DNA of 64,000 bases from positions 9,147-73,146 of the forward strand of contig CANLJX010000002.1 of NCBI GenBank assembly GCA_947491545.1. Direction: 5' to 3'. The DNA comes from Deltaproteobacteria bacterium. GTDB lineage: Bacteria > Bdellovibrionota_C > UBA2361 > OMII01. The translations under genes were made by a program, and so were the position numbers. Positions 2,425 to 16,059 of the stretch are shown here, piece by piece. How positions within the stretch are numbered: position 1 is the first letter of the stretch; each line of letters starts with the position of its first letter. Below the pieces are notes generated by a model. It saw only the letters and a program-made list of their open reading frames with translations, searched no databases and was not told the DNA's origin.

Positions 2425-2535
2425 GCGGAGAAGGGGACGCTACGATATTCGTGCCGAGCCACCTGGATGAGGACTAGGAATCCAGTGCAAGTGCAGGAGA
2501 AGGAGGAAGAGTAGGAGGATTTGTTTCGCGGGGGA
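2425..2535 (-). repeat. Family A nested-palindrome element, copy A-1 (internally deleted half copy)
   Basis: GCTACGATATTCGTGCCGAGCCACCTGGATGAGGACTAGGAATCCAGTGCAAGTGCAGGAGAAGGAGGAAGAG aligns to one arm plus the centre of copy A-6. Confidence 0.7.
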
Positions 2536-2613
2536 GAAGAGTGAGGGTGTGAATACCAGTGTCGTAACGACGCTGACCACGAACGACCCTCAGACGTTCG
2601 CGGAGCGTTGAAC

Positions 2614-3123
2614 CTATTCCTCCGGGGGAAGGCCAAACATCACCTCCATGGACAGGAAAAAGGAGTCGAGATCGACCATTGGACCAAGATCTCCACCTTT
2701 CTCTGGCCCTTCTCTGTAGGTGGCCATGGCGAAGAACACGTTATTAGTTCCCGAGAGCGAGATGCGAGCGAATCCACACGCACCCTCCCCAGGGATCTCG
2801 ATAAACAGGTGCACAACGGGCATCTCGTAGCCTGGCACGATGACGTCATCAAGATCAGGCGCGGGCTTCCCGCCCATGAGTCCCGAAAATCCGCGGTGCT
2901 CCGCCAGACGCCGCGCCGGGGTACGCATTACTCCGGTGGCCACTCCGATCCGGTACTGCTCGAAAGAGCACACCGCTCGCTTTGGCGACTCCTTTAGGAC
3001 ATCCCCTCGGGCGAGCGTTTGGTGCTCGTTTCCGAGCCTCCAAACCCCCGTCTTTGGGTGCATAAAGAAAGCCAGGTCGAGCTCGGCTTCTTTCGTTAGG
3101 TAACACAGTTCAAATCGACGCAT
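2614..3123 (-). CDS. Hypothetical protein
   Basis: ORF 2614..3222. Start moved to ATG 3123 (MRRFELCYL) because AAGGAGG lies 7 nt upstream. No recognisable domain. Confidence 0.5.
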   Translation of the reverse strand: MRRFELCYLTKEAELDLAFFMHPKTGVWRLGNEHQTLARGDVLKESPKRAVCSFEQYRIGVATGVMRTPARRLAEHRGFSGLMGGKPAPDLDDVIVPGYEMPVVHLFIEIPGEGACGFARISLSGTNNVFFAMATYREGPEKGGDLGPMVDLDSFFLSMEVMFGLPPEE

Positions 3124-3317
3124 TGCAAAACCTCCTTGTGGAACCAACATGGGTCCCTCGTGCGCGCTGCAGCGTGCGTACGAGGGACCCACATGGCGTC
3201 CAGGAGGCAGGACAATGCCCAAAAAACCTTGCAGGTATTCACACCCTATAAAAGGGCACCTAGACAGTCTACGAGGTGGCGGGGATTAAGCAAATTTTGG
3301 CCGCTGGGAGAAGGTAG

Positions 3318-3332
3318 AGTAGCCCGGCTACT
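3318..3332. promoter_or_regulatory. 15-bp palindrome AGTAGCC-C-GGCTACT (candidate operator), copy 1
   Basis: Perfect 7+1+7 dyad inside each unit of the 164-bp tandem duplication. Confidence 0.3.
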
Positions 3333-3481
3333 GGCAAAAAAAGAGGAGGCTAGCCCCCCTACAGAGAAACAAACTGTAAAGTTTAGAGCATGAGCTGCCG
3401 TAAGCTATAAGCAATTCGCGGGGGTAAAGTTATGGGGCTAAAGAGAACTTTAAGCAAATTTTGGCCGCTGGGAGAAGGTAG

Positions 3482-3496
3482 AGTAGCCCGGCTACT
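3482..3496. promoter_or_regulatory. 15-bp palindrome AGTAGCC-C-GGCTACT (candidate operator), copy 2
   Basis: Same dyad, 164 bp downstream, ~100 nt upstream of the ATG at 3596. Confidence 0.3.
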
Positions 3497-3595
3497 GGCA
3501 AAAAAAGAGGAGGCTAGCCCCCCTACAGAGAGACAAACTGTAAAGTTTAGAGCATGAGCTGCCGTAAGCTGTAAGTAATTTGCGGGGGGAAAGTT

Positions 3596-4090
3596 ATGGG
3601 GCTAAAGAGAACTTTAATTGCGCTGCTTGCCTTGAGTGTAGCCTTTCAGGGTGCTCAGCCGTGGAGCGTCGCTACGCGGGAGGTGTCCGCCGAGAGCAAA
3701 GCGGCTGCTCCGAAGCGCAAAGCGCCGCCACGGAGGGTTTTCTCCACCCGGGCATCGGTTGACCCGCTGACACCCGAGGCGGTGGCATTTTCTGGAGCTC
3801 TGGCGAAGTCTATCCCAAGTCGGTTGACGAGGGAGTCTCTTCGTAAGTTTACGTTTAAGCGAGCGAAGTCCAACTCGTTCGTCTCGGCGGAGACTAAATT
3901 CTCGCTTAGTGCATTGGCATCAGACCGCCGATCTTGGGCACGTGGAGTTGCGACCGTTACAGCGGGCGATATGTTCGTGGCGTTCATTCCATCGGGAAAT
4001 GGATTGGTTGGCATCGTTGAGGCGGTCCAGCGACGTGTCGGCAATAAAAAGGTTGATCTTAAGAGAGAGGCGCAGCTTCGAGCGGCTTGA
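3596..4090 (+). CDS. Secreted hypothetical protein
   Basis: Sec-type signal peptide MGLKRTLIALLALSVAFQGA. G-rich RBS 7 nt upstream. Sits in a visibly lower-GC stretch. Confidence 0.5.
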   Translation: MGLKRTLIALLALSVAFQGAQPWSVATREVSAESKAAAPKRKAPPRRVFSTRASVDPLTPEAVAFSGALAKSIPSRLTRESLRKFTFKRAKSNSFVSAETKFSLSALASDRRSWARGVATVTAGDMFVAFIPSGNGLVGIVEAVQRRVGNKKVDLKREAQLRAA

Positions 4091-4258
4091 TTTAAGGTTC
4101 ATCTACTAGTCGATCGGTTCCAGGTAGTCTTGTGGGATTCGCTCGACCCCAAAGGTATTGAGCTAACGGTAGCTAAGGCGCCGACCCTGATCACGAGGCC
4201 TCTCTCACCACAAGAATTTGCGAGTGTCTTGATCCCCCCAAAGGGTTCGGCTTCGAGC

Positions 4259-4987
4259 ATGAGGGTTGCTGGTATGGTGCCTCCTGCGATGCTCGCCGTA
4301 ATGTCGGCTTCCACCGTTTGTTACGAAGAAAAGGAGCCCGCACTAAAGAGGTATCTAAGGCCGGAAAGGAAGTCTATCTGCATTTTTGGCCCGTCAGTTA
4401 ACGTGCCAGATGACAAGAAGGCGTGCCCGAAACCTCGCGATGACATAAAATGCGACTACAGCAAAACGAAAAGGGAATTGACTCTCAAAAGCGAAAACGT
4501 CTTTGCTAAATCGCAGGAGGACTGCAGGAAAGCTGCCGTAGAATTAGAGGAACAAAATTGTGCTGGGCAAACTTTTGACCCCTTAGTGCTGAACTGTCCG
4601 GTGGTTCCCACCTACTCTCCAGGGGGTGCACCTTCTTTTAAACCTTGGGTTTGCCCTATAGAACTGCAGGAGGTGGGAGTTTCCGGGGCCACGTGTATCC
4701 CAATTACCGGGCTTGACTGTAAAGACAGGAAGCCTGATCGCGTCACCGCTACCCTCGACTATGACAAAAAATTGGTGACCTGCCAGTGCTTTTGGGCGGC
4801 CAAGGACGATCCAACTTGCCCGGGGAATCCAGACAGGGCGTGTCACTATGACGAGAAATCTTTAGAGACGACTATGCCGATCATACGAGGTGAGACCAAC
4901 AAAACGCGGGTCGAGAAATGCCATGCGTCATGTGAGACGCAAGAAGCGGAGACCTCCCGGATCGAATGTGCCGGGGTAGAGGCGTAG
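4259..4987 (+). CDS. Cysteine-rich secreted/lipoprotein-like hypothetical protein
   Basis: ORF 4130..4987. A plausible start is MRVAGMVPPAMLAVMSASTVC (hydrophobic leader ending in Cys). About 18 Cys spread over the mature part (CPKPRDDIKC, NCAG, NCPV, CPIEL, CIPITGLDC, CQC, CPGNPDRAC, CHASC). Confidence 0.45.
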   Translation: MRVAGMVPPAMLAVMSASTVCYEEKEPALKRYLRPERKSICIFGPSVNVPDDKKACPKPRDDIKCDYSKTKRELTLKSENVFAKSQEDCRKAAVELEEQNCAGQTFDPLVLNCPVVPTYSPGGAPSFKPWVCPIELQEVGVSGATCIPITGLDCKDRKPDRVTATLDYDKKLVTCQCFWAAKDDPTCPGNPDRACHYDEKSLETTMPIIRGETNKTRVEKCHASCETQEAETSRIECAGVEA

Positions 4988-4994
4988 ATTGGTA

Positions 4995-5320
4995 GCGCAG
5001 AGAAGGTGTTCGTCCGGCTCTCAAAAAAAACATTCGGAGGCTCAAAGCAGAATCTAGCGAGGCATAGCATTCCTCATCTTCATCCTAATCCTGCTCTTAC
5101 GCCTGCACCTGCACCGGAATCCTCTTCAAGTTCAAGAAATTGCAGATGGTTGCCCACGCCATGCCGATCGAGATGCCCGGATGAGAATGAGAAATCCGAT
5201 GCAAGTCTAGGATTCGGAGACGGAGGAAGTTCAGGGGCAGCATAGCCACCTTTCCCCGCCCCAAAGCCAGGCTAGAGAAGCCTCTAACAGCCAGCTTTAG
5301 ACAGCATGTGCCGGCCCCTC
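4995..5320 (-). repeat. Family A element, copy A-2 (full length, one arm degenerate)
   Basis: CATTCCTCATCTTCATCCTAATCCTGCTC..CCTGCACCTGCACCGG arm. The flanks align to A-3 (TAGCGAGGCAT.., GCCAGGCTAGAGAAGCC, AGCCAGCTTTAGACAGCATGTGCCGGCCCCT). Confidence 0.7.
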
Positions 5321-5433
5321 CTGCCGAATCAGAACCGCCAATCGTTGCTTTCCACCCCTCGCTGAATGACACTCCCGGGCTGGGTTTAAAAGGTTTTTTC
5401 TCTAACGGGAGTTCTACTCCCAAGGAGTCGGAT

Positions 5434-6174
5434 ATGTTGTACGAGCACTTTTCTGAGTGCCCGAAAGTTGAGGGCTACAGCCGGACGGTTGCAGTCTTCG
5501 GTATTATTGGCAAAGAGAGCGATCTCTCGGCAAACGTTGGCCAGCCAGTCCTGCTGCTAAAGCAGCGTGACGGGATTGGCGGCTTTCCATGGTGTTGGGA
5601 TCTTCCGGGAGGCTCTGCCGAGCCGGGGGATGCCATCTCGGATGATGACCCCTTGATACGAGGGTCGCACGACAGGTCTGTTCGAAGGACGCTGCAGCGC
5701 GAGCTTCTCGAGGAAGTTAACATCCGTTCGGATTACCACGTCAGAATCGGCAACCCGCTCTACGAAGTGCGTGGGGTCGAGAAGAGGATCGTGGAGCATC
5801 ACCTCTTCCTTGTTGTGTCCCACGGCCCTCCGAAGGAGAGCGACGAGGCGATCAACTTGGCGTGGGTCAACCCGCAATCGGCCCTCGGGCTGAAAATTGC
5901 AAGGTTTGAGCCAGCGCAGCGCTCGATGGGGCCTGTGGCTATCCTGATGCACGATGGCTTCTCGGTGCTCAGCAAGCCGCTGTACGAGGGGCCCCTGACG
6001 GAAGAGATCAAGTCTGTCGCTGGTTCAGAGCTCTGCTCTAACCGATTCAGCTTGATCGATCGAGATTGCTACTTTGCAAGGCTGTCCCCGGATGGCTCTG
6101 TGAAGGTATACCGACGGCTCAATCCTTTTACTCCGAGCGGCCACTTTGTTGGCAGCCTAGAGCACTTCGCGTAA
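5434..6174 (+). CDS. NUDIX-family hydrolase (atypical insertion in Nudix box)
   Basis: ORF 5308..6174. Start moved to ATG 5434 (AAGGAG 6 nt upstream), because the 5' part of the ORF lies inside repeat A-2. Nudix-like GGSAEPGD...RRTLQRELLEEVNI. Confidence 0.6.
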   Translation: MLYEHFSECPKVEGYSRTVAVFGIIGKESDLSANVGQPVLLLKQRDGIGGFPWCWDLPGGSAEPGDAISDDDPLIRGSHDRSVRRTLQRELLEEVNIRSDYHVRIGNPLYEVRGVEKRIVEHHLFLVVSHGPPKESDEAINLAWVNPQSALGLKIARFEPAQRSMGPVAILMHDGFSVLSKPLYEGPLTEEIKSVAGSELCSNRFSLIDRDCYFARLSPDGSVKVYRRLNPFTPSGHFVGSLEHFA

Positions 6175-6247
6175 GCCTCTGAGTTTTATCAACCCGTCCC
6201 GCACCGAGAGGGAACACAATATCTCGGCAACTTTTTCGTTCTCCTGA

Positions 6248-6449
6248 AACTCGTGTCAGTCATGACTTTCCGAGTGTTCTCAACCGCAATACTTGCGAGC
6301 CTCTCTTTGGAATAATTCGATTCTGGCGATGATCGGTGCATAACTCGACGGAATCGGTGCGCCCCATGCGAAAACAGGAAAGGGAGCTGCGCCGTGCAAA
6401 CAACGCGACGCCGAGAAAGGAAGAAAGTCATGACTGACAGGAGTTTGCC
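6248..6449 (+). mobile_element. Family E MITE-like element, copy E-1
   Basis: Terminal IRs AAACTCGTGTCAGTCATGACTTTC / GAAAGTCATGACTGACAGGAGTTT (23 of 24). ~200 bp with no coding capacity for a transposase. Confidence 0.75.
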
Positions 6450-6510
6450 AGCGGGTGCGGCTGCCGTCCAAATTTCAGGCGCAAGCGACCGGCGTCTATA
6501 CATTGCAATG

Positions 6511-7644
6511 TCAATATGTTAGCGCCTCATCCGCCGCCCCTTCGGCCTTCTTGCCGTCTGGCGGCACGCGCACGAATGCGGTTCGGCGCGCCATGCGTTC
6601 GATAACGGTCACAAACACAAACTGGGGGCGCTCCCGCTCAACCAGCCCAACCAAGTTGCGGGGACTGGCAAGAGCCTTATCCCAGTGAAGAATCGCGAGA
6701 TCCGCAAACGTACGCTCCATGAACGGCTTTAGCGAATCACCGAAAGAATCGGTGAGCCACAGTACCTTTGCGGCGTTGAGCGCTCCAGGGGTGTGGCGTC
6801 GCAACAGTCTCGCTGGCTCGCCTTGCTCCAAGATGTCCGGCAGCTCTTCTGCCCGTCCGACCGTAGAGAGCTCATCGGCGGGGGCTGGCTTCAACACCGG
6901 CACCTCCTCCCGATCCCATGCTTGGAGCCGAAGGAACAGCGACATGTCTCCGCCCCGCCGTTCTGTAGTGCCATCCACCGTAAAAAATTCGGCAGGAAGC
7001 CAGGCAACCTCAGGCGCATGCTCCCTGACAGATTCCGCAAATGCTCGGTACCCAAGCCATGCCCCAAGCTCGTTCCAGTGCGAGTCGTGCATGTAGTACA
7101 GCCGCTCGGTCCGTGAGCGCGCAGCCGAGAGGAGCGCCGGCGCGAGAAAGACGTGGACTCCTTTCTCTGGCAGGGACTTGAGCCGCTCTATCGGCGCATC
7201 TGGCGAAGTCTTCGCCCAGTTCGGCGCATACTCCCCATACACAGACTGCTTGTCTGGGACCACCATGATTCGAAAAACCCGCACGCCTTTCTCGCGCAAC
7301 CAAAGATCCCATGCTATTCCGGCGCTGATAATCCTGCTGTTTCGCTCTTCGTCAGCCGGTGTGGCGGAACGCCTGTGGGAAGAGATCGAATCTTGGTGCG
7401 TGTCCCCAAGAAAGTCCCACCCCCCGTAGCCAATCACGACGTCTCCGGGGCTCACGCTCACGCCATACGCCGCAAGCGGCCGAGACACCCAGCTAAAGAA
7501 CCGGTCGAAGTTGAACATCTCTCGGCTAATCCAGGGCGGCCGCTGCTCCTTGGATGCTGCAAAGCGCTCCGCCACAGGTATGGCGCACAAGCACGCAGCG
7601 ACGCAGCTGAGAAAAATGTGAACTTTGCTTTTTGCTCTCATCAC
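6511..7644 (-). CDS. AlgJ/AlgX-like SGNH O-acetyltransferase partner of MBOAT
   Basis: N-terminal membrane anchor. DSHW motif (YYMHDSHWNELG) typical of AlgJ/AlgX/DltD-type proteins. Starts directly after the MBOAT stop (TAG-GTG-ATG). Confidence 0.65.
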   Translation of the reverse strand: MMRAKSKVHIFLSCVAACLCAIPVAERFAASKEQRPPWISREMFNFDRFFSWVSRPLAAYGVSVSPGDVVIGYGGWDFLGDTHQDSISSHRRSATPADEERNSRIISAGIAWDLWLREKGVRVFRIMVVPDKQSVYGEYAPNWAKTSPDAPIERLKSLPEKGVHVFLAPALLSAARSRTERLYYMHDSHWNELGAWLGYRAFAESVREHAPEVAWLPAEFFTVDGTTERRGGDMSLFLRLQAWDREEVPVLKPAPADELSTVGRAEELPDILEQGEPARLLRRHTPGALNAAKVLWLTDSFGDSLKPFMERTFADLAILHWDKALASPRNLVGLVERERPQFVFVTVIERMARRTAFVRVPPDGKKAEGAADEALTY

Positions 7645-9120
7645 CTAGAAATTAAAGTACAGAAACACCCGGCTCATCGACGCAACCGCAAAGAGAATGC
7701 CGATCCCCAGGAGGGGGATTGCGCCGACGACTCGCCGAACTGTCATCTCGCTCCGCGCCATCTCTATCGTGTTCGGCGCGGTGAGCACCATCGCCGATGC
7801 AGCTATCACTCCAAGAATTGGCAGGTTGATCGCCACGCCTGCTGGCAAGCTCGAAAGCAGCCCGTCCATGGCAAAACCTCCCCACGCAAGCTGCGCTGTA
7901 GGGATTGCCTGTGTCGGCAGTGACAGGGCGCTCTCAAGATCGAGCATCCCGGAAAACACTTTCTGCGCATCCCCCCACGACTTGGCACGAAAGAGCACCC
8001 ACCCCGCATTCACGAAGAGGAAGGTAGCTCCCCACGCCCAGGGCTTCGGCAACCGACACCCAACGCCAGACCAAACACGGTGCGTCACCATACCAACGCC
8101 GTGCAACGCTCCCCACGCCACAAAGAGCCAACTCGCTCCGTGCCACAGCCCACCGAGAGTAAATGTGACCAACACGTTGGCGGCGGCTTGCGCCACGCCG
8201 ACACGGTTTCCGCCCAGCGGGATGTAGACGTATTCTCTCAGAAAGCGGCTTAGTGTCATGTGCCATCGCCGCCAGAAGTCCTGAATGTCGAGCGCCTTGT
8301 AGGGCGAATTGAAGTTCATCGGCAGCCAGATGTTAAACAGCAACGCGCAGCCAATCGCCATGTCGCTGTAGCCGCTAAAGTCGAAGTAAAGCTGAAACGT
8401 GTAGGCAAGGCTCGTTCCCCACGCACTGAAGAAATCAAGCGACTGCGCTTGGTCGAATCCCCAGTTAGCCCAAAGCGCAAGCGTGTCAGCGATCACTACT
8501 TTCTTGAACAATCCAAGGCTAAAGGCGAACAGCCCTCGCATCACGTATGAGTACCGAACGGTCCAGCGCCACCGGGAGGTGAGCTGCCCCATAACATCAT
8601 CGTGATGAACTATCGGTCCTGCGATGAGGTGGGGGAAGAATGTCACGAAGAGGGCGTAGTTCAGGAGCCGGTACTCGTGCGTCTTCCCACGGTAGCTGTC
8701 GACCAGGTAGTCAATCTGCTGGAACGTGAAGAAGCTAATTCCCAACGGGAGCGCTACTCGCAGGAGCGCGAGGTCGGTGCCAAGCCGGGAGTTAACGTTG
8801 CTAATAAAAAAGTCCGCGTACTTAAAGTAGCCAAGAAGGAGGAGATTTGCCGTCACGCCAACCGCAAGCCGCGCCCGGCGAGATGCGCCCCAACGGCTTC
8901 CAGCCTCCGGCCCTAACTCCCTTCCGATTCCAAAGTTAAAGAGGATAGACCCAGCGATAAGCGGAAGGTAGCGCCAGTCCCAGTAGCCGTAGAAGAAAAG
9001 ATTCGCTGCAACGAGCCACACCTTCGCCGAGACAACACGGCGGAAGCGATTGAGCAGGAAGTACCCTGAAAAAACCGCCGGCAAGAAAAGAAGGATGAAC
9101 TGCCAGGATGAAAAAAGCAT
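7645..9120 (-). CDS. algI: MBOAT family O-acyltransferase (AlgI/DltB-like)
   Basis: 491-aa polytopic membrane protein. MLFSSWQFILLFLP N-terminus, WRRWHMTLSRFLREYVYIPLGGNR and GLWHGASW motifs characteristic of AlgI/DltB. Confidence 0.88.
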   Translation of the reverse strand: MLFSSWQFILLFLPAVFSGYFLLNRFRRVVSAKVWLVAANLFFYGYWDWRYLPLIAGSILFNFGIGRELGPEAGSRWGASRRARLAVGVTANLLLLGYFKYADFFISNVNSRLGTDLALLRVALPLGISFFTFQQIDYLVDSYRGKTHEYRLLNYALFVTFFPHLIAGPIVHHDDVMGQLTSRWRWTVRYSYVMRGLFAFSLGLFKKVVIADTLALWANWGFDQAQSLDFFSAWGTSLAYTFQLYFDFSGYSDMAIGCALLFNIWLPMNFNSPYKALDIQDFWRRWHMTLSRFLREYVYIPLGGNRVGVAQAAANVLVTFTLGGLWHGASWLFVAWGALHGVGMVTHRVWSGVGCRLPKPWAWGATFLFVNAGWVLFRAKSWGDAQKVFSGMLDLESALSLPTQAIPTAQLAWGGFAMDGLLSSLPAGVAINLPILGVIAASAMVLTAPNTIEMARSEMTVRRVVGAIPLLGIGILFAVASMSRVFLYFNF

Positions 9121-9364
9121 GCTCTCTTACCAGCGGACCGCCGGGAACAGCCGTTAGTGCATCGTCTCATGTGTTCAGTGGCTCGCAACCACCAGCCGCC
9201 GCACTGAAGCCATTCGTTTCCGGCGCATATTGCCCCTAAAACACTATAGGAACCGCTAGCGTCCGTCGCAACCAAGATTCAGCGGCGGGTGTCGAAATTT
9301 TGTGGACGGAGAACTAGCAGCCCATTCCCGGCTGATCGCCGCAAGAGCTTGTGCTCGCTTGGGG

Positions 9365-9567
9365 AACTCGTGTCAGTCATGACTTTCCGAGTTTTTTCAA
9401 CCGCAATACTTGCGAGCGTCTCTTTGGAATAATTCGATTCTGGCGACGAGCGGTGCATAACTCGACAGAATCGGTGCGCCCCATGCGAAAACAGGAAAGG
9501 GAGCTGCGCCGTGCAAACAACGCGACGCCGAGAAAGGAAGAAAGTCATGACTGACAGGAGCTTAGCC
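9365..9567 (+). mobile_element. Family E MITE-like element, copy E-2
   Basis: Same orientation as E-1, with 6 mismatches counted over ~200 bp. Confidence 0.75.
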
Positions 9568-9891
9568 AATGCCAAGTCACGAAGACGCTCTCCCTCGGAA
9601 TAACCCTTAAGACGCAGTCTTTGGCCAGACATATGAGTAGAAGGAATTCGTGCGTATCCGACCGTCCCTGAAACTCTGGGAGGCTCGGAGGCGCAGAAAG
9701 TGAGGAGAGGTTTCTACCGCTTTGGTGTTCACTCTATAGGAACTCAAGCGATAGCTCACCCTCGAAACAGTGACTACAGACATCCGGCGCTCCCTAAGCT
9801 CACAAGGCATCGCAGAGGCGGTCCCTTGTGAGTTTAGGTGAGATGGCACGCGCTGTCTCTAAGCTCGGTTTCGATTAGAAGGGAGTCTACT

Positions 9892-10002
9892 GTGTACGCA
9901 GCACTTAAGTTGACTGGAGAGTTGTTGGCTTTTATTGCTCAGGCAATCGCTATCTTATTCTCCGTAGGATTCATGGCACTCATTGCCTGGATCGTGACAT
10001 AG
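9892..10002 (+). CDS. Candidate 36-aa hydrophobic membrane peptide
   Basis: Not in ORF track (too short). GTG start 7 nt after AAGGGAG. Translation: VYAALKLTGELLAFIAQAIAILFSVGFMALIAWIVT*, one predicted TM helix. Lies in a low-GC gene-free stretch. Confidence 0.3.
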   Translation: MYAALKLTGELLAFIAQAIAILFSVGFMALIAWIVT

Positions 10003-10072
10003 AGCGGCAGGGCACAGATTTTGATGGTTACAACCCTCACTTTCTTGCCCTCCACCTCTCTAGGAGAGCGAT

Positions 10073-10392
10073 GCGAAAAAGGGGGCGGACATGCTCTGTA
10101 GAAAAGCTGTGCAGTCTCAATTCCAGTCGTAGCGGGGCATCTCATTCCTCGTCCTGATCTTAATCCTCCTCCTGCACCTGCACCGGCTCCTGCTCATAAT
10201 CAAGAAATGTCCGGGAATTGCCCAGTATATGCCCGCAATAAGGGGACGGACGAGAACGAGGAATCTGGTGCAGGTGCAGGAGAATGAGAAAGAGGAAGAC
10301 TGGGACAAGGAGGAGGAGGAGAACGGCCGGCTAGTAACTCCTTCGCGAGCCAGCGCTTTTTCTACAGAGCATCTCCGACCCCTTTTTCGTGC
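10073..10392 (-). repeat. Family A element, copy A-3 (most complete, ~320 bp)
   Basis: Outer IR: GCGAAAAAGGGGGCGGACATGCTCTGTAGAAAAGC / GCTTTTTCTACAGAGCATCTCCGACCCCTTTTTCG. Inner IR: CTCCTGCACCTGCACCGG / CTGGTGCAGGTGCAGGAG. Pyrimidine and purine tracts mirror each other. Confidence 0.9.
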
Positions 10393-10409
10393 AGTGAAAT
10401 GCTGAAGTC

Positions 10410-11441
10410 TTACCCCCAGCACGGCTCCTGCTGCGTCGAGCAGTGCAGCGTGCCGCCTCCGAGAATCCAGTCGGTGCAGTTTATCCCGACTACCTTGCGG
10501 CCTGGCATCAGCTCTGCCAGGAGGCCTAGCACGTGCCTATCACGTTCGTCGTTCCAGGTCGGGACGAGGCACAGCCCGTTGGCGAAGTAAAAATTAGCGT
10601 AGCCGGCCGGCCAGCGCACACCGTCGCAGAAGCGCGGGGTAGGGAACGGGATCTCGACCACTGTGAGCTTCTCGCCCTGTGGGGTGCGGAAGCTCTGCAG
10701 CACATCGACGTTCTGTTGCAGCCGCTCGTACTGCTCGCTGTCGCTCTTCTCAGCGCTCGCAACGACCACGGTGCGTGAGTCAACAAAGCGCGCCACGTTG
10801 TCGATGTGGCCGTGGGTGTCGTCGCCCGACACGCCGTTGGGAAGCCAGATCGTGCTGGAGCACCCGAACTGCGAGCGGAAGATCTCCTCGTAGTCGGCCT
10901 TCGAGAAGCCGGCGTTACGCTGTTGGTCTTCCGAGAGCAGGCACTCCTCGGTGACGAGTATCAGGCCGTCGCCGCTTACGTCGAGCATGCCGCCCTCGAG
11001 CACGGGCTGCTTGCCGCCCTTTAAGCCCTTCTGGAGGGGGACCTTGGTCGTGGCCGAGAAGAACTCTGGCACTGTGCGGTCTAGCTCGACCTCTGGCAGG
11101 GCGCCCCAGCCGGTAAAGAGGAACGAGAGCCATGTTGGGCTGTCACCAACAATCCCGATCGGCCCAGAGTCGCGCAGCCAGGCGCGGTTGTACTGCGCAC
11201 GGTGGAAGACGATGTCGCCGCGAATCTCCTGGCGTGAGAGCCGATCGCGCGCGTCGTGCTCGGTCTCCTCGTCGAGGCACAGCAGCTCAATGCGCTCGTT
11301 CTGGGAGACGTGTCGGATAAACTCACAGTACGCCCAGCGCACGGCGTCGACCTTGCCCGGGTAGTCTGACTCAAGGTAGGGCCACGCGATCCACGTTGCG
11401 CGGTGCTCTTCCCACTCTGCTGGCATTCGATTCATCTGCAT
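10410..11441 (-). CDS. aguA: Agmatine deiminase
   Basis: MPAEWEEH N-terminus, DDTHGHIDN, and C-terminal GGGTLHCSTQQ active-site Cys motif of agmatine deiminase / PAD_porph family. Confidence 0.85.
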   Translation of the reverse strand: MQMNRMPAEWEEHRATWIAWPYLESDYPGKVDAVRWAYCEFIRHVSQNERIELLCLDEETEHDARDRLSRQEIRGDIVFHRAQYNRAWLRDSGPIGIVGDSPTWLSFLFTGWGALPEVELDRTVPEFFSATTKVPLQKGLKGGKQPVLEGGMLDVSGDGLILVTEECLLSEDQQRNAGFSKADYEEIFRSQFGCSSTIWLPNGVSGDDTHGHIDNVARFVDSRTVVVASAEKSDSEQYERLQQNVDVLQSFRTPQGEKLTVVEIPFPTPRFCDGVRWPAGYANFYFANGLCLVPTWNDERDRHVLGLLAELMPGRKVVGINCTDWILGGGTLHCSTQQEPCWG

Positions 11442-11444
11442 ACG

Positions 11445-12506
11445 CTACTCCTGTGGTGCCTTTTCGCCGTCACGGGTCCAGGAGCGCTGCCCCTTGATGC
11501 CGAGACGGGTGGCGAACTTCTCCTGAATCAAAAAGTCAGATGGCAAGAGCTTCTGCTCTTCGAGCCAGAGGTAGATCTCTTCGGCTGCCATGCGGTGCGC
11601 GATCTCGTTTGGGTGGCGGTCAACTCCAGGGATCACTTGCAGCCGCTCAAGCGGAATCCCCTTGTAGGCATCGGAGACGTCGAGCACTGGCACTCCGAGC
11701 CCCTGCATGACCTTCGCCACCTTCTCGTGCAGCGGGTAGAACGGGTAGCGCTCGTCCATCGGGAGGCCGAAGAGCGGGAAAACGACTGCCACCACAGGCG
11801 TCTTCGACTCGCGCGCCAGCGAGACAATTGTCTTCATCGAGTCGGTGAACTGCTTCCACGAGCGTGGGTTGTTGAACAGGTCGTTAAAGTAGTCAATGTA
11901 CGCCTGGTGGGTGCGGGAGTTGTGGATCCGTGTCGCGACGAAGCCGTAGGTGCGCCAGTTGGCTGCGAGCCACGCCTTCTTGCCGGTCATGTTGAGCGCG
12001 CCGAAGCTGTCTTGCATGTTCTCGGTGATGCCGGAGGGGTTGTGGTGCTTGATCTCCGGGTCGTTCAAGGTGATCTGGAGCATGATCATGTCTGCTCCTT
12101 CCTTAATGGCAGTTTTTACGACTGGTATCTCGTGCGAGGTGGAGTAGGCAGGCACCCCGTAGTTGATCACCTCGGCGCGACGTTGGCTGCCGCTCACGTT
12201 TAGCATCTGCTCTAGTTTCTTGGGGAAGGCGTCGGTGAACTGCATGTAGGGGGCGAAGGTGAACGAGTCGCCGATAGTTGCGATGCGGAAGACGTTTGCG
12301 GGCTTCACTGCTTCGTGCGGAAAGTCCTGCATCGAGGGCACGAGTGGCGAACGGAAGTAGAAGCGCGGGCGGTCGCTCCAGCCGGGACCAGCCGCAGAGC
12401 GGACAGGCACCGTCAATCGCACGACAACCTCAAGCAGCACGAGCGCAACGGCTAGCCCAAAGGTGCCAGCGAGCAGGGGGCCGAAGCGGGACTTTTGCGC
12501 GCTCAT
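11445..12506 (-). CDS. SGNH/GDSL hydrolase-type esterase, membrane anchored
   Basis: N-terminal TM segment. Block I IATIGDSFTF, block III ITLNDP, block V GVDRHPN. 4-nt overlap with the upstream GT gene. Confidence 0.72.
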   Translation of the reverse strand: MSAQKSRFGPLLAGTFGLAVALVLLEVVVRLTVPVRSAAGPGWSDRPRFYFRSPLVPSMQDFPHEAVKPANVFRIATIGDSFTFAPYMQFTDAFPKKLEQMLNVSGSQRRAEVINYGVPAYSTSHEIPVVKTAIKEGADMIMLQITLNDPEIKHHNPSGITENMQDSFGALNMTGKKAWLAANWRTYGFVATRIHNSRTHQAYIDYFNDLFNNPRSWKQFTDSMKTIVSLARESKTPVVAVVFPLFGLPMDERYPFYPLHEKVAKVMQGLGVPVLDVSDAYKGIPLERLQVIPGVDRHPNEIAHRMAAEEIYLWLEEQKLLPSDFLIQEKFATRLGIKGQRSWTRDGEKAPQE

Positions 12507-13744
12507 TGTGGCGCCTCCGACTGGAGCAGAGCCTCTGCCCCTGGCTCGCGCTCCTGTCCGCCGAGGCGGGTGTAGAGGGCAAGGAGCTGCGTTTCAAAGG
12601 CCGGAACGGTGTAGAGAGTTTCAGCGCGCTCCCGCGCACGGGATCCGATCGCGGCGCGCAGCTCAGGGCTATCGAGCAGCGTTCGTATCCCGGCAGCAAA
12701 CTCGTTAGGGCCTGCCGCGGCTAGCACGGCGATCTCTCCGTCTAGGACCTGTGAGTGGGTGGGGAGGTCGGTTGCAACGAGCGCCGTGCCTGAGTGCAGG
12801 TACGAGTACACCTTCATCGGAGTGTTGTTCCCCTTGATGCGCGGCGAGACGAGGATCTCGGCGTGCTGCAGAAACGACTTTAAGTTCGCGACCGGCCGGG
12901 GTCCGAGGAACGCCACGCTCTCTCGGCAGCCCAGTGCTGACGCCTTGCGGGCGTAGGCTTCAATCGAGGCATCAGTGCCGCCGATGACGACGAGCTGCGG
13001 ATTCGTTGGGTGCTGGGCGATGAGGGCGAACGACTCTAGCAGGAGGTCGATCCCCTGGTAGCGCTCGAGATTTCCGACGTACAGAACAACTGGGCGCCCG
13101 TCCTGAACGGGGCTCCCGAAGATCTGCGAGGCGCTGACGCGTGGGCTATCTCCCTCCGGCAGGAGCGAAACGTCACGCAGCATGACGGTGTGCGGGGAGC
13201 CGTGGCGCTCAGCGATGAGCTGCAGGGCATCGCACACAGGGGCAACGGCAGAGCTTCCGCGCACGGCGACACCTTCCAGGAAGCTCAGGAGCGGCAAGAG
13301 CGGCCTGAAAATGCGCCACTTCTCAGTCAGCTGCATCGAGAGAGAGGAGTCCATGTCGTACAGGTACGGTGTGCCGAAGAGCTTCTTGGCGAGCCAGGCG
13401 ATGAACACAGCTTCTTCGACCGCGTGCACGACGGCGTACTGCTCCTTGCGCGCCCTCCACAGCAGCGAGAACGCCGAGAGGGTGAAAAACATGTCGCACA
13501 AGAGCTTCTTGAGCGAGATTCCAGGCCGAATGCCCCTCAGGAAGCTCGGTGTGCGAGTGCGCACGATGCGCACCCCGGGGATCGAAATGTCTGAGCCCTC
13601 GTCGTACGCGAGGAGATCTATCAGTGGGCGCTCGCCGGAGCGGGAGGCGAGCTTCGCCGAGAGCGTCTCAAGCACCAGCCGCACCGCAATCGGCGTGCCG
13701 CGCTCTTGGTAGAAGGGTTGGGGGGCGAGCACCAGAATCTTCAC
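12503..13744 (-). CDS. Glycosyltransferase family 4 (GT-B, group 1)
   Basis: MKILVLAPQPFYQERGTPIAV N-terminus and the C-terminal GT1 region (LYVGNLERYQGIDLL...SPRIKGNNTPMKVYSYLHSGTALVATD). Confidence 0.85.
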   Translation of the reverse strand: MKILVLAPQPFYQERGTPIAVRLVLETLSAKLASRSGERPLIDLLAYDEGSDISIPGVRIVRTRTPSFLRGIRPGISLKKLLCDMFFTLSAFSLLWRARKEQYAVVHAVEEAVFIAWLAKKLFGTPYLYDMDSSLSMQLTEKWRIFRPLLPLLSFLEGVAVRGSSAVAPVCDALQLIAERHGSPHTVMLRDVSLLPEGDSPRVSASQIFGSPVQDGRPVVLYVGNLERYQGIDLLLESFALIAQHPTNPQLVVIGGTDASIEAYARKASALGCRESVAFLGPRPVANLKSFLQHAEILVSPRIKGNNTPMKVYSYLHSGTALVATDLPTHSQVLDGEIAVLAAAGPNEFAAGIRTLLDSPELRAAIGSRARERAETLYTVPAFETQLLALYTRLGGQEREPGAEALLQSEAPQ

Positions 13745-13745
13745 G

Positions 13746-15293
13746 CTACGTCCTCCCGAAGAGCTTGCGTCGGATGAGGGCCTTAGTGTCGCGCAGGAAG
13801 AATCGCAGGGAGCGGCGCTGGCAGTTGAGCCAGAGCAGGATGTAGCCTCCGGTGGAGAGGGTGAACTTGAGCACCGCCGGGCGCAGCTTCGGCAGGTGGC
13901 AGAACATGTGGGTGAACATGTGGATCTCGGTCTTCACGAACTGCTTCCCAGTCTGGCGCGGGAAGCGGAATCCGTGATCGCCGTAAGCCGGAACGGGCTT
14001 TCCTTGGCGGCGCAGGGTCTCGGTCACACGGAAGGCGCGCCAGCGCTTCTCGGTCGCCATCATGCGGTTGCACGCGAGCGCCTCGCGCTCGGTAACAGGG
14101 TCAACGACGGCGTCGCCGTCGTCGGCGATGCGGCGAACGGCAGCCTGTCCGCGCGCGGTGCGAGCCAGGCCGAAGCTCCAGCCCTTGTAGAAGTCCACGC
14201 CCTCGTGAGGCGGAGCCATCCACGGGTCGCCGACCGCAACGTCCGCGAACTCAGCTAGCGCATCGAAGCAGGTCAGGCAGCGTGACGGTGTGTAGAGCCG
14301 GTAGACGATGTTGATGATCTCCATCGAGGAGGGGCGGTAGCCCTTCCTCTCGCCGAAGTACACTGGGTAGAGCGAGCCGTCGTTCATCTCAAGGTGCGGC
14401 GTTCCGGGGTGCTTGCCGACGCGCGAGATGTAGCGCTTGGCGTTCTTGGTCTTCTCCCCTAGGCTCTCCCAAATTATCCTGAGCGCGTCGTGCTCGACGG
14501 CGGCGTGGCAGAAGAGCCCAATCGTGAGCACGATGCGCTCGCGCAGCCGCTGGTCGAGCTCTGCAGCCTTGACGTAGCCGTGGATCTGGCAGGGGAGCCC
14601 GACGAGCGCGTACCGGCCTGGGACGTTTCGGATCTCGCTGAAGACCGAGTTGGTCGGGCAGATGGCATACTTTGACTTCATCGCGGCGAGGATCTCCTCG
14701 CGTGAGCGGGCAACGATCGCTTTTCCCTTCCAGAGCTGGTCAGGGTCTGAGGTTATTACCACTGCGCCGTCGATCTCGCCGCGCCGCATCATGTTGAGCA
14801 GGATCGCCGTCACGAGCCCGCCGCTCGTTGAGCGCTCGCGGATATCTGGATCTGTCGAGTAGGAGAGGAACGCGTCGATGAACGAGCCGTGAGTTGAGGT
14901 CAGGTCGGCTTCCTTCCCGAACTGCTTCTTGTACGCGTCGATTACGTTGAACTCATCGCCTGGGCACACTTTGACGCACAAGTCGCAGTCGGTGCAGGCC
15001 GAGAGGTTGTGCACTGCTGGGTAGTCGTCGTTGTCGAGGCCGAGCACGCCAGTCGGGCAGATGCCGACACACGAGCCGCAGCGGTGGCAGAGGCCGCCGT
15101 CGATGATCTTCCCGAGGCTTCGAAGCGCGCGCGGCGTTGTGTCGCTCTTGTCGTGCTCCCAGGTGAGAGGAGATGTTATCGGGCTTGAGCCGCGCAGGGT
15201 CGTGTACGGCGCCGGGGCTGGCTGGCCGACGATCGAGAGCGAGGCCGGCTTGCTTCGCCGCTCGGGAGCGGTTGCCTCGCTGCCGCTAGCCAT
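13746..15293 (-). CDS. FrhB/FdhB-like (coenzyme F420 hydrogenase beta-like) protein with 2x[4Fe-4S] ferredoxin domain
   Basis: CHRCGSCVGICP and CTDCDLCVKVCP cluster motifs followed by the FrhB_FdhB-type region. This family commonly sits in polysaccharide clusters. Confidence 0.72.
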   Translation of the reverse strand: MASGSEATAPERRSKPASLSIVGQPAPAPYTTLRGSSPITSPLTWEHDKSDTTPRALRSLGKIIDGGLCHRCGSCVGICPTGVLGLDNDDYPAVHNLSACTDCDLCVKVCPGDEFNVIDAYKKQFGKEADLTSTHGSFIDAFLSYSTDPDIRERSTSGGLVTAILLNMMRRGEIDGAVVITSDPDQLWKGKAIVARSREEILAAMKSKYAICPTNSVFSEIRNVPGRYALVGLPCQIHGYVKAAELDQRLRERIVLTIGLFCHAAVEHDALRIIWESLGEKTKNAKRYISRVGKHPGTPHLEMNDGSLYPVYFGERKGYRPSSMEIINIVYRLYTPSRCLTCFDALAEFADVAVGDPWMAPPHEGVDFYKGWSFGLARTARGQAAVRRIADDGDAVVDPVTEREALACNRMMATEKRWRAFRVTETLRRQGKPVPAYGDHGFRFPRQTGKQFVKTEIHMFTHMFCHLPKLRPAVLKFTLSTGGYILLWLNCQRRSLRFFLRDTKALIRRKLFGRT

Positions 15294-16059
15294 GCTGCTC
15301 CTCCCGCACGAACTTCGCCACTACTGGGGAGCCGAAGAGCCACGTTAATCCGACCGCGCGCGCTATACGCTCAAGGCGGCGCGAGAGCTCCGGGCGACCC
15401 AGAGCACGGTGCAGCCCCATCGGAAAGAAGAACTGCGCTGTTGAAGACTCAAGCCGGAAGCCGTGGCGCTTAAACTCGCGCCGCACCTGCCACGTGGTAA
15501 AGATGCGGAACGTTCGGGTGTTCCCCTCAATTCGGCGCTTTATTCCGAAGAGGAGCGGCGAGAGAAAGTTAGAGCTTAGCCAGACAGGGTAGTCCACGAT
15601 CACCGCATGGCTCGATGTGCGGCACATCTCGGCGATCAGCGTGCGCCACGCGGTACAGTGGCTCATCAGCCGAAAGCTCACCACGAGGTTAAACGATCTC
15701 TCTGGGAAGGGAAGCTCAACCAGGTTGCCGGCGCGAAACGAGATGGCACCAGACTCAATGAAGTCCCTCAGCCGCTCTGCGCAGATGTGCGCGCTGCCGA
15801 GCACGGTGACGTCACGGTCTGCGCGCGCGAGCGGAATAGCGATCTGGCCGTGCCCGCCGCCCACGTCGAGCACTGAGGTGCAGTCGTGGTCTAGCGCAGC
15901 GATGACGGCGCGCTCCTGCACTGCCAGCATCCAGGCGCCAACCGGCCCGCCGAAGCGTGCCGCGTACTCCTCAGACGAGGAGTGGATGTCAGCCGTCTCG
16001 TCCCCGTAGCGGACGATCTCTTGGCTGCTGTGTGGAGCGTCGATCACTGCGTTCGACAT
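15286..16059 (-). CDS. Class I SAM-dependent methyltransferase
   Basis: Motif I VLDVGGGHGQIAIPLA. First gene of the minus-strand operon. 8-nt overlap with the next gene. Confidence 0.8.
   Translation of the reverse strand: MSNAVIDAPHSSQEIVRYGDETADIHSSSEEYAARFGGPVGAWMLAVQERAVIAALDHDCTSVLDVGGGHGQIAIPLARADRDVTVLGSAHICAERLRDFIESGAISFRAGNLVELPFPERSFNLVVSFRLMSHCTAWRTLIAEMCRTSSHAVIVDYPVWLSSNFLSPLLFGIKRRIEGNTRTFRIFTTWQVRREFKRHGFRLESSTAQFFFPMGLHRALGRPELSRRLERIARAVGLTWLFGSPVVAKFVREEQHG

Follow-up and report, generated by a model that had tools for sequence, protein, structure and literature searches.

The window analysed here, a 64,000-nucleotide stretch of contig CANLJX010000002.1 (assembly GCA_947491545.1, positions 9,147 to 73,146), is part of contig C2 of a metagenome-assembled genome (MAG) from an uncultured freshwater Bdellovibrionota (3.03 Mb in 206 contigs, 84% complete, 58.6% GC). 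Within it, two near-identical elements, E1 and E2, bracket in direct orientation a 2915-bp segment, X (6450–9364), which carries a pair of O-acetylation genes. The elements resemble both MITEs (miniature inverted-repeat transposable elements) and REPINs, the hairpin-forming doublets of repetitive extragenic palindromic (REP) sequences. The source genome is designated G000 and its congeners bear other G-numbers, the congener comparisons extending over 35 genomes. The locus comprises the following features, the last of them being the final gene of a glycan-modification operon:

5308–6174, plus strand: NUDIX hydrolase gene of the left flank (PF00293).
6248–6449, plus strand: E1, REPIN/MITE-like element (repeat search, fold, strain and sister-species comparison).
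6450–9364, minus strand: X, the segment with two genes, their upstream region and a gene relic, absent from G007 and G046.
6511–7644, minus strand: AlgX/AlgJ-like SGNH O-acetyltransferase partner (PF16822, E 3.1e-14).
7645–9120, minus strand: MBOAT (AlgI/DltB-like) membrane O-acyltransferase (PF03062, E 1.6e-33).
9243–9271, minus strand: match to a sigma-70-like promoter, within X and upstream of the MBOAT gene (TTGCGA-17-TATAGT, 9/12; a consensus match only).
9314–9364, minus strand: relic of a bestrophin-like gene, its last ~16 codons and stop, abutting the left terminus of E2.
9365–9566, plus strand: E2, the putative resident element copy, whose orthologue is the one E found in G007 and in G046.
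10410–11441, minus strand: agmatine-deiminase-type gene (PAD_porph) of the right flank (PF04371, E 1e-96).

An earlier, sequence-only reading of the window had described E1 and E2 as near-identical direct elements of ~200 bp, with six differences between them and ~24-bp terminal inverted repeats, flanking exactly two genes in the same orientation. The repeat search returned the pair as a single family of 199-nt direct repeats (6248–6446 and 9365–9563) with 96% identity and a start-to-start distance of 3117 nt, and the two genes were recovered as described by PF03062 and PF16822. The recount, however, gave seven differences in 199 nt (6276, 6279, 6301, 6330, 6333, 6350 and 6444), six of them within the first 103 nt from the left, followed by 93 nt without any (6351–6443) and by the seventh at 6444. 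Inverted arms of 24 nt were reported for each copy (6247–6270/6423–6446, 96%; 9367–9387/9540–9560, 95%), and the alignment of 31 family members extended the inverted terminus to ~27 nt with the form (G)GAAA-CYCNTGTCAGTCATGACTTTCC. The 21-nt terminal core has four matches in the window, against a chance expectation of 0.01. Folded as single-stranded DNA (ssDNA), E1 pairs terminus with terminus (-44.2 kcal/mol, z -4.9). As that reading had also reported, no target-site duplication is present around E1 or E2. A match to a known structured RNA, which it had raised as an argument against itself, did not appear: Rfam gave zero matches at the gathering threshold in the window and zero at E≤1 over 6150–6550. 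The open reading frames (ORFs) spanning the two copies (6189–6503 and 9279–9632) had no Pfam match.

The gene order NUDIX-E1-AlgX-MBOAT-E2-PAD recurs on a pair of independent contigs from metagenomes (26 and 69 kb; 99.3–99.4% identity), and a third metagenome contig spans the NUDIX/E1/AlgX junction. Because independent metagenome contigs reproduce it, the E-X-E arrangement is not a misassembly. Exact look-ups of the MBOAT, NUDIX and PAD proteins placed the species in at least 10 samples. Among the contigs listed, none showed a solo E in the same species: the two full-length ones carry the cassette and the others end before or within the repeats. The Logan contigs L161, L162, L164 and L165 end at 9366 or 9394, before any 31-mer shared by E1 and E2, and these ends could also reflect a second predecessor of E2, for example in a solo-E variant or in a co-occurring species similar to G007 or G046. 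An analogous look-up showed no empty site for a 99%-identical pair of elements around a Fic gene in G001.

The site is occupied differently in two closely related species. In G007 (contig C57), window positions 3450–6449 and 9365–16000 align back-to-back with 91–94% identity and share one E, and in G046 (C75) positions 5286–6449 and 9365–16000 are contiguous, with one E and no X. Across flank, element and flank, these genomes are 91–95% identical to G000 at the nucleotide level. Their NUDIX orthologues (93–94% amino acid identity) are followed by the single E, the PAD_porph gene is kept to its right, and neither genome contains an MBOAT orthologue. We placed G007 and G046 as sisters with G000 outside because their mutual identity at the locus is 96.3%, compared with 91–95% to G000. 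In G001, homology stops 12 nt before the E site, where synteny also breaks, and no E is found there.

The left side of this site differs further in G046. There, a divergent E-like copy (C75; L056 10492–10693), 75% identical to E, replaces window positions 2431–5285, a 2.85-kb stretch of low-GC genes present in G000 and G007. The NUDIX gene of G046 is thus bracketed by two direct, dissimilar copies of the E class.

Comparison of the two G000 copies with the single E of the sisters allows them to be told apart. E1 and E2 share 97% identity, E2 is 93–94% identical to the E of the sisters and E1 90–91%. At the six differences in the left half, E2 has the sister base at five (G007) or four (G046) positions and E1 at none for either species, third bases being present in G007 at 6301 and in G046 at 6333; at 6444, E1 has the base of the sisters and that of E2 is private. 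E1 holds the private state at six of the seven differences, two of which are polymorphic among strains, and E2 is unchanged across three strains. Since E1 and E2 are mutual closest relatives and E2 is nearer to the sisters, either E2 is the resident copy and E1 a duplicate made after the species split, or conversion has homogenised both.

The content of X points to a second locus. The MBOAT and AlgX-type genes abut on the same strand and constitute an AlgI/AlgJ-type O-acetylation pair (PF03062 and PF16822), the MBOAT protein scoring 162 bits with TIGR04091, under that model's cut-off. Its orthologue occurs in only two of the 35 genomes, G000 and G016 (81% amino acid identity), and is missing in the other 33, including the next relative, G001. 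The AlgX-like protein is 55% identical to the neighbour of the orthologous MBOAT in G016. Directly upstream of this MBOAT gene, G016 carries an intact bestrophin-like gene (L040:6749–7642, PF14023, ending ...SCGDQPGMVC*), and the 51 nt at 9314–9364 of the window, which encode the last 16 codons and stop of such a gene (...SCGDQPGMGC*), match its 3' end over 38 nt at 87% identity. The local alignment score of 51 compares with a maximum of 25 in 500 shuffles. The rest of the bestrophin-like gene was sought to the right of E2 and is not there, and the bestrophin paralogues of G000 on C132 and C105 have C-termini that differ from the relic. The cassette of G016 is flanked by ccmC and ccmB; the ccm locus of G000 has a macro-domain gene at this place and shows no donor scar, neither E nor relic. 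X represents part of a different locus that was severed within a gene and set exactly at the terminus of the resident E.

The nucleotide identity of the cassette to that of G016 is 71%, with neighbouring core genes at 70–79%. GC content (57–60%) and GC at third codon positions (GC3, 0.68–0.70) of X are near those of the genome (58.6% GC) and the NUDIX gene, the adjoining glycan operon having a higher GC3 (0.79–0.83), and the composition of X gives no decisive signal of foreignness. Because its identity to G016 is core-like and its composition unremarkable, the cassette is of an intra-genus type and not a recent distant import. Among metagenome contigs of the JGI, the best match to the cassette reached only 56% amino acid identity and thus conveys nothing on its context.

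These comparisons bear on the opposite history, in which an ancestral E-X-E arrangement was deleted in the common ancestor of G007 and G046 by recombination between the two E copies, either homologous or mediated by a REP-associated tyrosine transposase (RAYT), leaving a product similar to a solo long terminal repeat, with the G000 copies later converted. The solo-E junction is the exact product of such a recombination, and with G007 and G046 as sisters a single loss and a single gain are equally parsimonious among three taxa. Furthermore, the right halves of E1 and E2 are identical and the E1-private sites vary among strains, both of which suit conversion. However, the E of the sisters never has the E1 state at the six sites, so that only a crossover in the initial ~28 of 200 nt would do, nearly all congeners, G001 included, lack the MBOAT orthologue, and the relic of another locus within X implies an insertion at some stage regardless. 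We consider ancestral loss unlikely, and gain in the G000 lineage, not loss, to be the likely direction.

E does not stand alone in the genome. In G000, the terminal core occurs at eight loci: besides the window, it bounds both ends of 120-bp doublets (C13:38981–39100 and C53:2967–3086), it is found as solo cores on C23, C50 and C67, and it delimits a 766-bp unit (C47:1233–1998). The complementary termini of the elements measure 24–29 nt. As ssDNA, a 120-bp doublet folds with a z of -7.6, a single REP hairpin being weak (-4.6 kcal/mol), and the E class differs in its spacer of 152 nt. No further copy of the E class that could have served as source was found in G000. Termini of this type bound hairpin doublets of 110–230 bp in 20 of the 35 congeners, and the 17-nt core is likewise present in 20 of the 35 with no matches of the reversed control, G000 having 11 core matches and no congener more than 30. 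In a search of 185,579 species genomes, multiple copies of the 17-nt core were confined to MAGs of uncultured freshwater bacteria, the majority named Bdellovibrionota or Bdellovibrionales and a few filed as Proteobacteria, Pseudomonadota or Bacterium only; the single matches elsewhere agree with a rough chance estimate of ~70. E is thus a long-spacer member of a REPIN-like family that is confined to one genus of freshwater Bdellovibrionota.

Three further arrangements of the termini were observed in the genus. The outermost 8–10 nt of the terminus are often repeated just outside the element, after a GAAA/TTTC tag (L062 2822, L061 1078, L071 and L041 9486; for example CTGACATGAG-TTT-CTGACATGAG), and such outside repeats may be traces left by repeated nicking or by earlier neighbours. 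In G010 (C56:424–3130), a pair of inverted terminal cores surrounds 2.7 kb, possibly a cargo-carrying element, and in G038 (C127:23928–28852) four solo cores lie in one orientation 1–2 kb apart.

The 766-bp unit on C47 carries a candidate partner enzyme. Its only long frame encodes a Y1_Tnp protein (PF01797, E 2e-10) that scores 53–57 bits with the NCBIfam model REP_Tyr_transpos (NF047646), compared with 16 bits for IS200, and contains an HUH motif (NHVHH) as well as a tyrosine motif (YIYRNP). Over their left 40 nt, the 120-bp doublets match this unit's left end. Terminal cores with a spacing of 741 nt also enclose the RAYT-like gene in G046 (C102) and G009 (C7), and the gene in G001 (C17) has a family terminus at one side. 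Each genome yields a single match of this type; the gene is single-copy and vertically inherited, and the G000 C47 and G046 C102 loci, 93.7% identical over the whole 1.8 kb, are orthologous sites. The RAYT-like protein is the likely partner of the E family. Because the same termini enclose this gene and bound the doublets of congeners, the E copies are not orphan MITEs, and they do have the characters of MITEs, being short, non-coding and multi-copy, with inverted termini and kinship to an autonomous element. None of the flanks of the 31 aligned copies showed a direct repeat interpretable as a target-site duplication, as is expected for HUH/Y1 elements.

The sequence-only reading had likened the locus to a composite transposon, and the parts of that proposal concerning a mobile-type repeat with relatives and a matching transposase gene stand: the genome search it called for found both the doublets and the Y1/HUH unit. 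The deletion junction it had foreseen, one E joining 6247 to 9568, is the one carried by G007 and G046 at the orthologous site. The classical form of the model, in which the outer termini of E1 and E2 mobilised E1-X-E2 into an E-free site, fares differently. Like elements, each with inverted termini, do bracket cargo here, and composite units bracketed by MITEs are known (integron mobilization units, IMU, and MITE-flanked integrons). Nevertheless, the empty site of two sister species already holds one E, target-site duplications are lacking, E1 and E2 lie in direct instead of inverted orientation and are local sister copies, each the closest relative of the other, and G000 has no other copy of the E class as a source. 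Moreover, the enzyme that probably acts with E belongs to the HUH Y1 (RAYT-like) class instead of being a DDE transposase, and a premature TAG interrupts its gene in G000. A classical composite transposon is consequently a highly improbable explanation of the locus.

Pairs of elements around genes are not restricted to the window. Adjacent elements were in direct orientation in 11 of 11 pairs from six genomes (P = 5e-4, comparing asymmetric interiors). The partners of a pair were nearest neighbours at 100, 99, 94–95, 90, 85 and 97% identity, the next best copies being 3–18 points lower; the pairs in G007:C3 and G046:C34 (93–94%) are not strictly nearest, copies at the shared locus in the sister genome being equally close. 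In G001, with ~14 elements in 3.3 Mb, a rough estimate gives 0.2 pairs within 3 kb by chance, compared with at least seven observed. The pairs flank single accessory genes (Fic, an AbiEi/AbiEii-like pair, MFS-like, NTase-like and secreted proteins), and the orientation of the genes between the repeats is mixed.

Such direct hairpin repeats between single accessory genes, toxin-antitoxin-like pairs included, recall integrons, and 21 of the 35 congeners contain an IntI (TIGR02249, 405–451 bits with a cut-off of 265). The doublets could then be attC sites of arrays without an integrase (clusters of attC sites lacking integron integrases, CALIN), their folded strands being recombined by an IntI of the genus. 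However, at E≤1e-20 no IntI was found in G000, G001 or G046, and G007 has a fragment only; repeat-richness ranks G001 first, G007 second, the IntI-positive G038 third, G046 fourth and G000 fifth; and in IntI-positive genomes the listed repeats are not on the IntI contigs. By inspection, the termini GGAAAC.../...GTTTCC are unlike the RYYYAAC/GTTRRRY boxes, and the same termini enclose the Y1 transposase gene as a unit. The mixed orientation of the bracketed genes is also at odds with an integron. No IntI was found in G016, and no obvious homogeneous attC arrays were seen beside intI in G035 or G040. The probability that we assign to an integron-type origin is accordingly very small.

Two other loci differ between sister species at an element. 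A second indel located exactly at an element terminus was found by comparing G000 C67:3635–8228 with G007:C15 (L188 6399–6636). In G000, a block of 4363 bp separates the flank 'gattgg' from a 229-bp element and contains ORFs of 1119 and 341 aa, the latter presumably Lrp-like, judged by eye; in G007, flank and element are adjacent. The outer ~10 nt of the G000 element are damaged. A third locus, at G000 C46:9264, is hypervariable beside one conserved flank, with unrelated sequence and no doublet in G000, a doublet/218-aa ORF/doublet arrangement in G007:C3 (L186), and in G046:C34 (L187) 730 bp followed by doublet/MFS-like gene/doublet.

The nearest-neighbour similarity of the pairs suits local hops, and with them a reading by coincidence, in which X arrived separately and an E copy hopped to its other side. 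Enzymes of the IS200/IS605 type insert with strand bias, and such a bias on ssDNA would yield the direct orientation. Against coincidence, both edges of X are E termini and the X/E2 edge falls inside a truncated relic with no remnant beyond E2, the sisters would still need a precise deletion between E copies, and the same geometry is found at C67 with only one element. We regard it as quite improbable that insertion and hopping coincided.

Taken together, the explanation that we favour, and hold to be moderately probable as a whole, is that ~2.9 kb was gained at a resident E, with duplication of the element around the insert, in a family of the REPIN/RAYT-like kind. According to this scheme, E2 would be the resident copy at the NUDIX/PAD intergenic site, X would have been cut from a bestrophin-MBOAT-AlgX arrangement similar to that of G016, and its insertion at the terminus of the resident E in the G000 lineage would have left E1 as the new copy. 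The route we prefer would start with nicks on opposite strands, 5' of each inverted REP, made by the Y1 enzyme or by hairpin processing. These nicks would leave an element-long stagger of ~200 nt to which the foreign DNA could be joined, and fill-in would duplicate E around the insert. The C67 locus, where DNA was inserted at one end of the element, a terminus is damaged and the element is not duplicated, could be the one-nick version of this process. In an alternative route, nearly as likely, a circle comprising E and X would recombine homologously with the resident E, the reverse reaction regenerating a solo E. Whichever the origin, recombination between the direct repeats could readily delete or amplify the O-acetylation cassette. 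A broader generalisation, which we put forward as doubtful, is that REPIN-like elements might act as docking sites for gene capture, RAYT-type nicks with fill-in of a ~120–200-nt stagger giving rise to integrase-free, integron-like arrays whose cassettes could be excised again.

Several observations weigh against gain by duplication of a resident element. Its polarity derives from one comparison without an outgroup, G000 versus G007 and G046. Gene conversion between E1 and E2 could mimic recent duplication, and the uneven distribution of their differences hints at conversion or a mosaic origin. The Eb/E pair of G046 is only 64% identical and does not consist of sister copies. As for the family, ~5–15 elements per genome is a low copy number compared with classical REPINs. 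The RAYT-like protein scores under the NCBIfam cut-off (57 versus 80 bits), and a sequence search of the PDB with an intact version returned no match. In G000 a TAG replaces a conserved Gln codon and interrupts its frame (GHLW*AKFF), and in G001 a TGA does so at a different codon, the frames of G046 and G009 being intact. The two stops look like independent inactivations, and the enzyme may be inactive now; because the gene is broken in G000, any enzyme-driven step there is probably historical. Finally, the REP-rich congeners G038, G040 and G045 have no RAYT of this type.

Other features of the window lie outside the cassette or concern short motifs. A further, far more abundant element of ~316 bp, a nested palindrome with 32-nt inverted ends, occupies 10074–10389; its relatives are found on at least 20 contigs of G000, and the Logan contigs of the PAD gene break there. 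A similar short motif is located at 9243–9254, upstream of the MBOAT gene in X, and at 9729–9742, to the right of E2 (CACTATAGGAAC / CACTCTATAGGAAC), the first copy overlapping the promoter-like match. Positions 3286–3613 hold a 164-bp tandem duplication (97% identity) in a region where the strain contig L169 differs. At the window edge, positions 1–798 together with the upstream sequence (C2:8778–9944) encode a Xer-like tyrosine recombinase. This gene is not an IntI, with scores of 146 bits for XerC and 72 bits for the integron-integrase model, both far under the cut-offs.

REPINs and RAYTs are usually viewed as self-contained, vertically inherited intragenomic replicators without a role in moving genes. 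In this genus, a REPIN-like family marks the exact borders of differences in gene content between sister species: the O-acetylation cassette beside a glycan operon, the 4.4-kb two-gene block, and single accessory genes, for example Fic and AbiE-like pairs. Were capture driven by an HUH enzyme or by the hairpin itself, this would constitute a cassette route distinct from integrons and from DDE composite transposons. If only homologous recombination between dispersed repeats is at work, the locus is still a clean natural case of repeat-mediated gain or loss of a cassette. In addition, it offers a concrete, testable reason why close freshwater Bdellovibrionota differ in the acetylation of surface polysaccharides, which matters for phage and predator-prey interactions.

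Among known systems, MITE-bracketed units such as IMU and MITE-flanked class 1 integrons move as whole units by DDE transposition into element-free targets, generating a short target-site duplication. The E1-X-E2 arrangement resembles them in that two non-autonomous inverted-repeat copies flank cargo without mobility genes of its own, and differs from them in that one element stays at the empty site, a target-site duplication is lacking and the copies are local duplicates. As a functional analogy only, the placement of new DNA between two direct copies of a once-single palindromic repeat recalls integron attC sites and CRISPR spacer acquisition, in which the repeat is duplicated by staggered attack of Cas1-Cas2. 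Unlike in those systems, no Cas1 or IntI is present at the E loci, the inserts are of kilobase size and contain whole genes with promoters, and the mechanism here is inferred.

Insertions and rearrangements concentrate at REP sequences and bacterial interspersed mosaic elements (BIMEs) (Tobes & Pareja 2006, PMC1525189), and these share with the present locus the precise placement of foreign DNA at or in REP-type palindromes. There, insertion sequences arrive with their own transposase (PMC1525189), whereas here ordinary cargo carries the relic of a former neighbour gene. The closest likeness is to the REPIN-RAYT system, in which REP doublets are mobilised by REP-associated tyrosine transposases (Nunvar 2010, PMC2817692; Bertels & Rainey 2011, PMC3116915, PMC3337134). 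In both, intergenic elements fold as ssDNA into a long hairpin through two short repeats in inverted orientation, and the repeats flank a short, single-copy, repeat-type-specific HUH/Y1 gene at an orthologous locus. The family described here nonetheless comprises ~5–15 elements per genome instead of the classical tens to hundreds, and has a conserved tag of (G)GAAA/TTTC(C) and not one of the GTAG or CGTC classes (PMC3733652). It also differs in the weak single REP hairpin, in the long spacer of the E class and in the sub-threshold NCBIfam score of its protein. Moreover, co-localised REPINs in P. fluorescens SBW25 are reportedly no commoner than chance (PMC3337134), in contrast to the strongly clustered, direct and gene-bracketing elements of this genus. 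Systems of the REPIN-RAYT kind are thus already known, and what is new is a REPIN/RAYT-like family that brackets gene cassettes as locally duplicated direct repeats.

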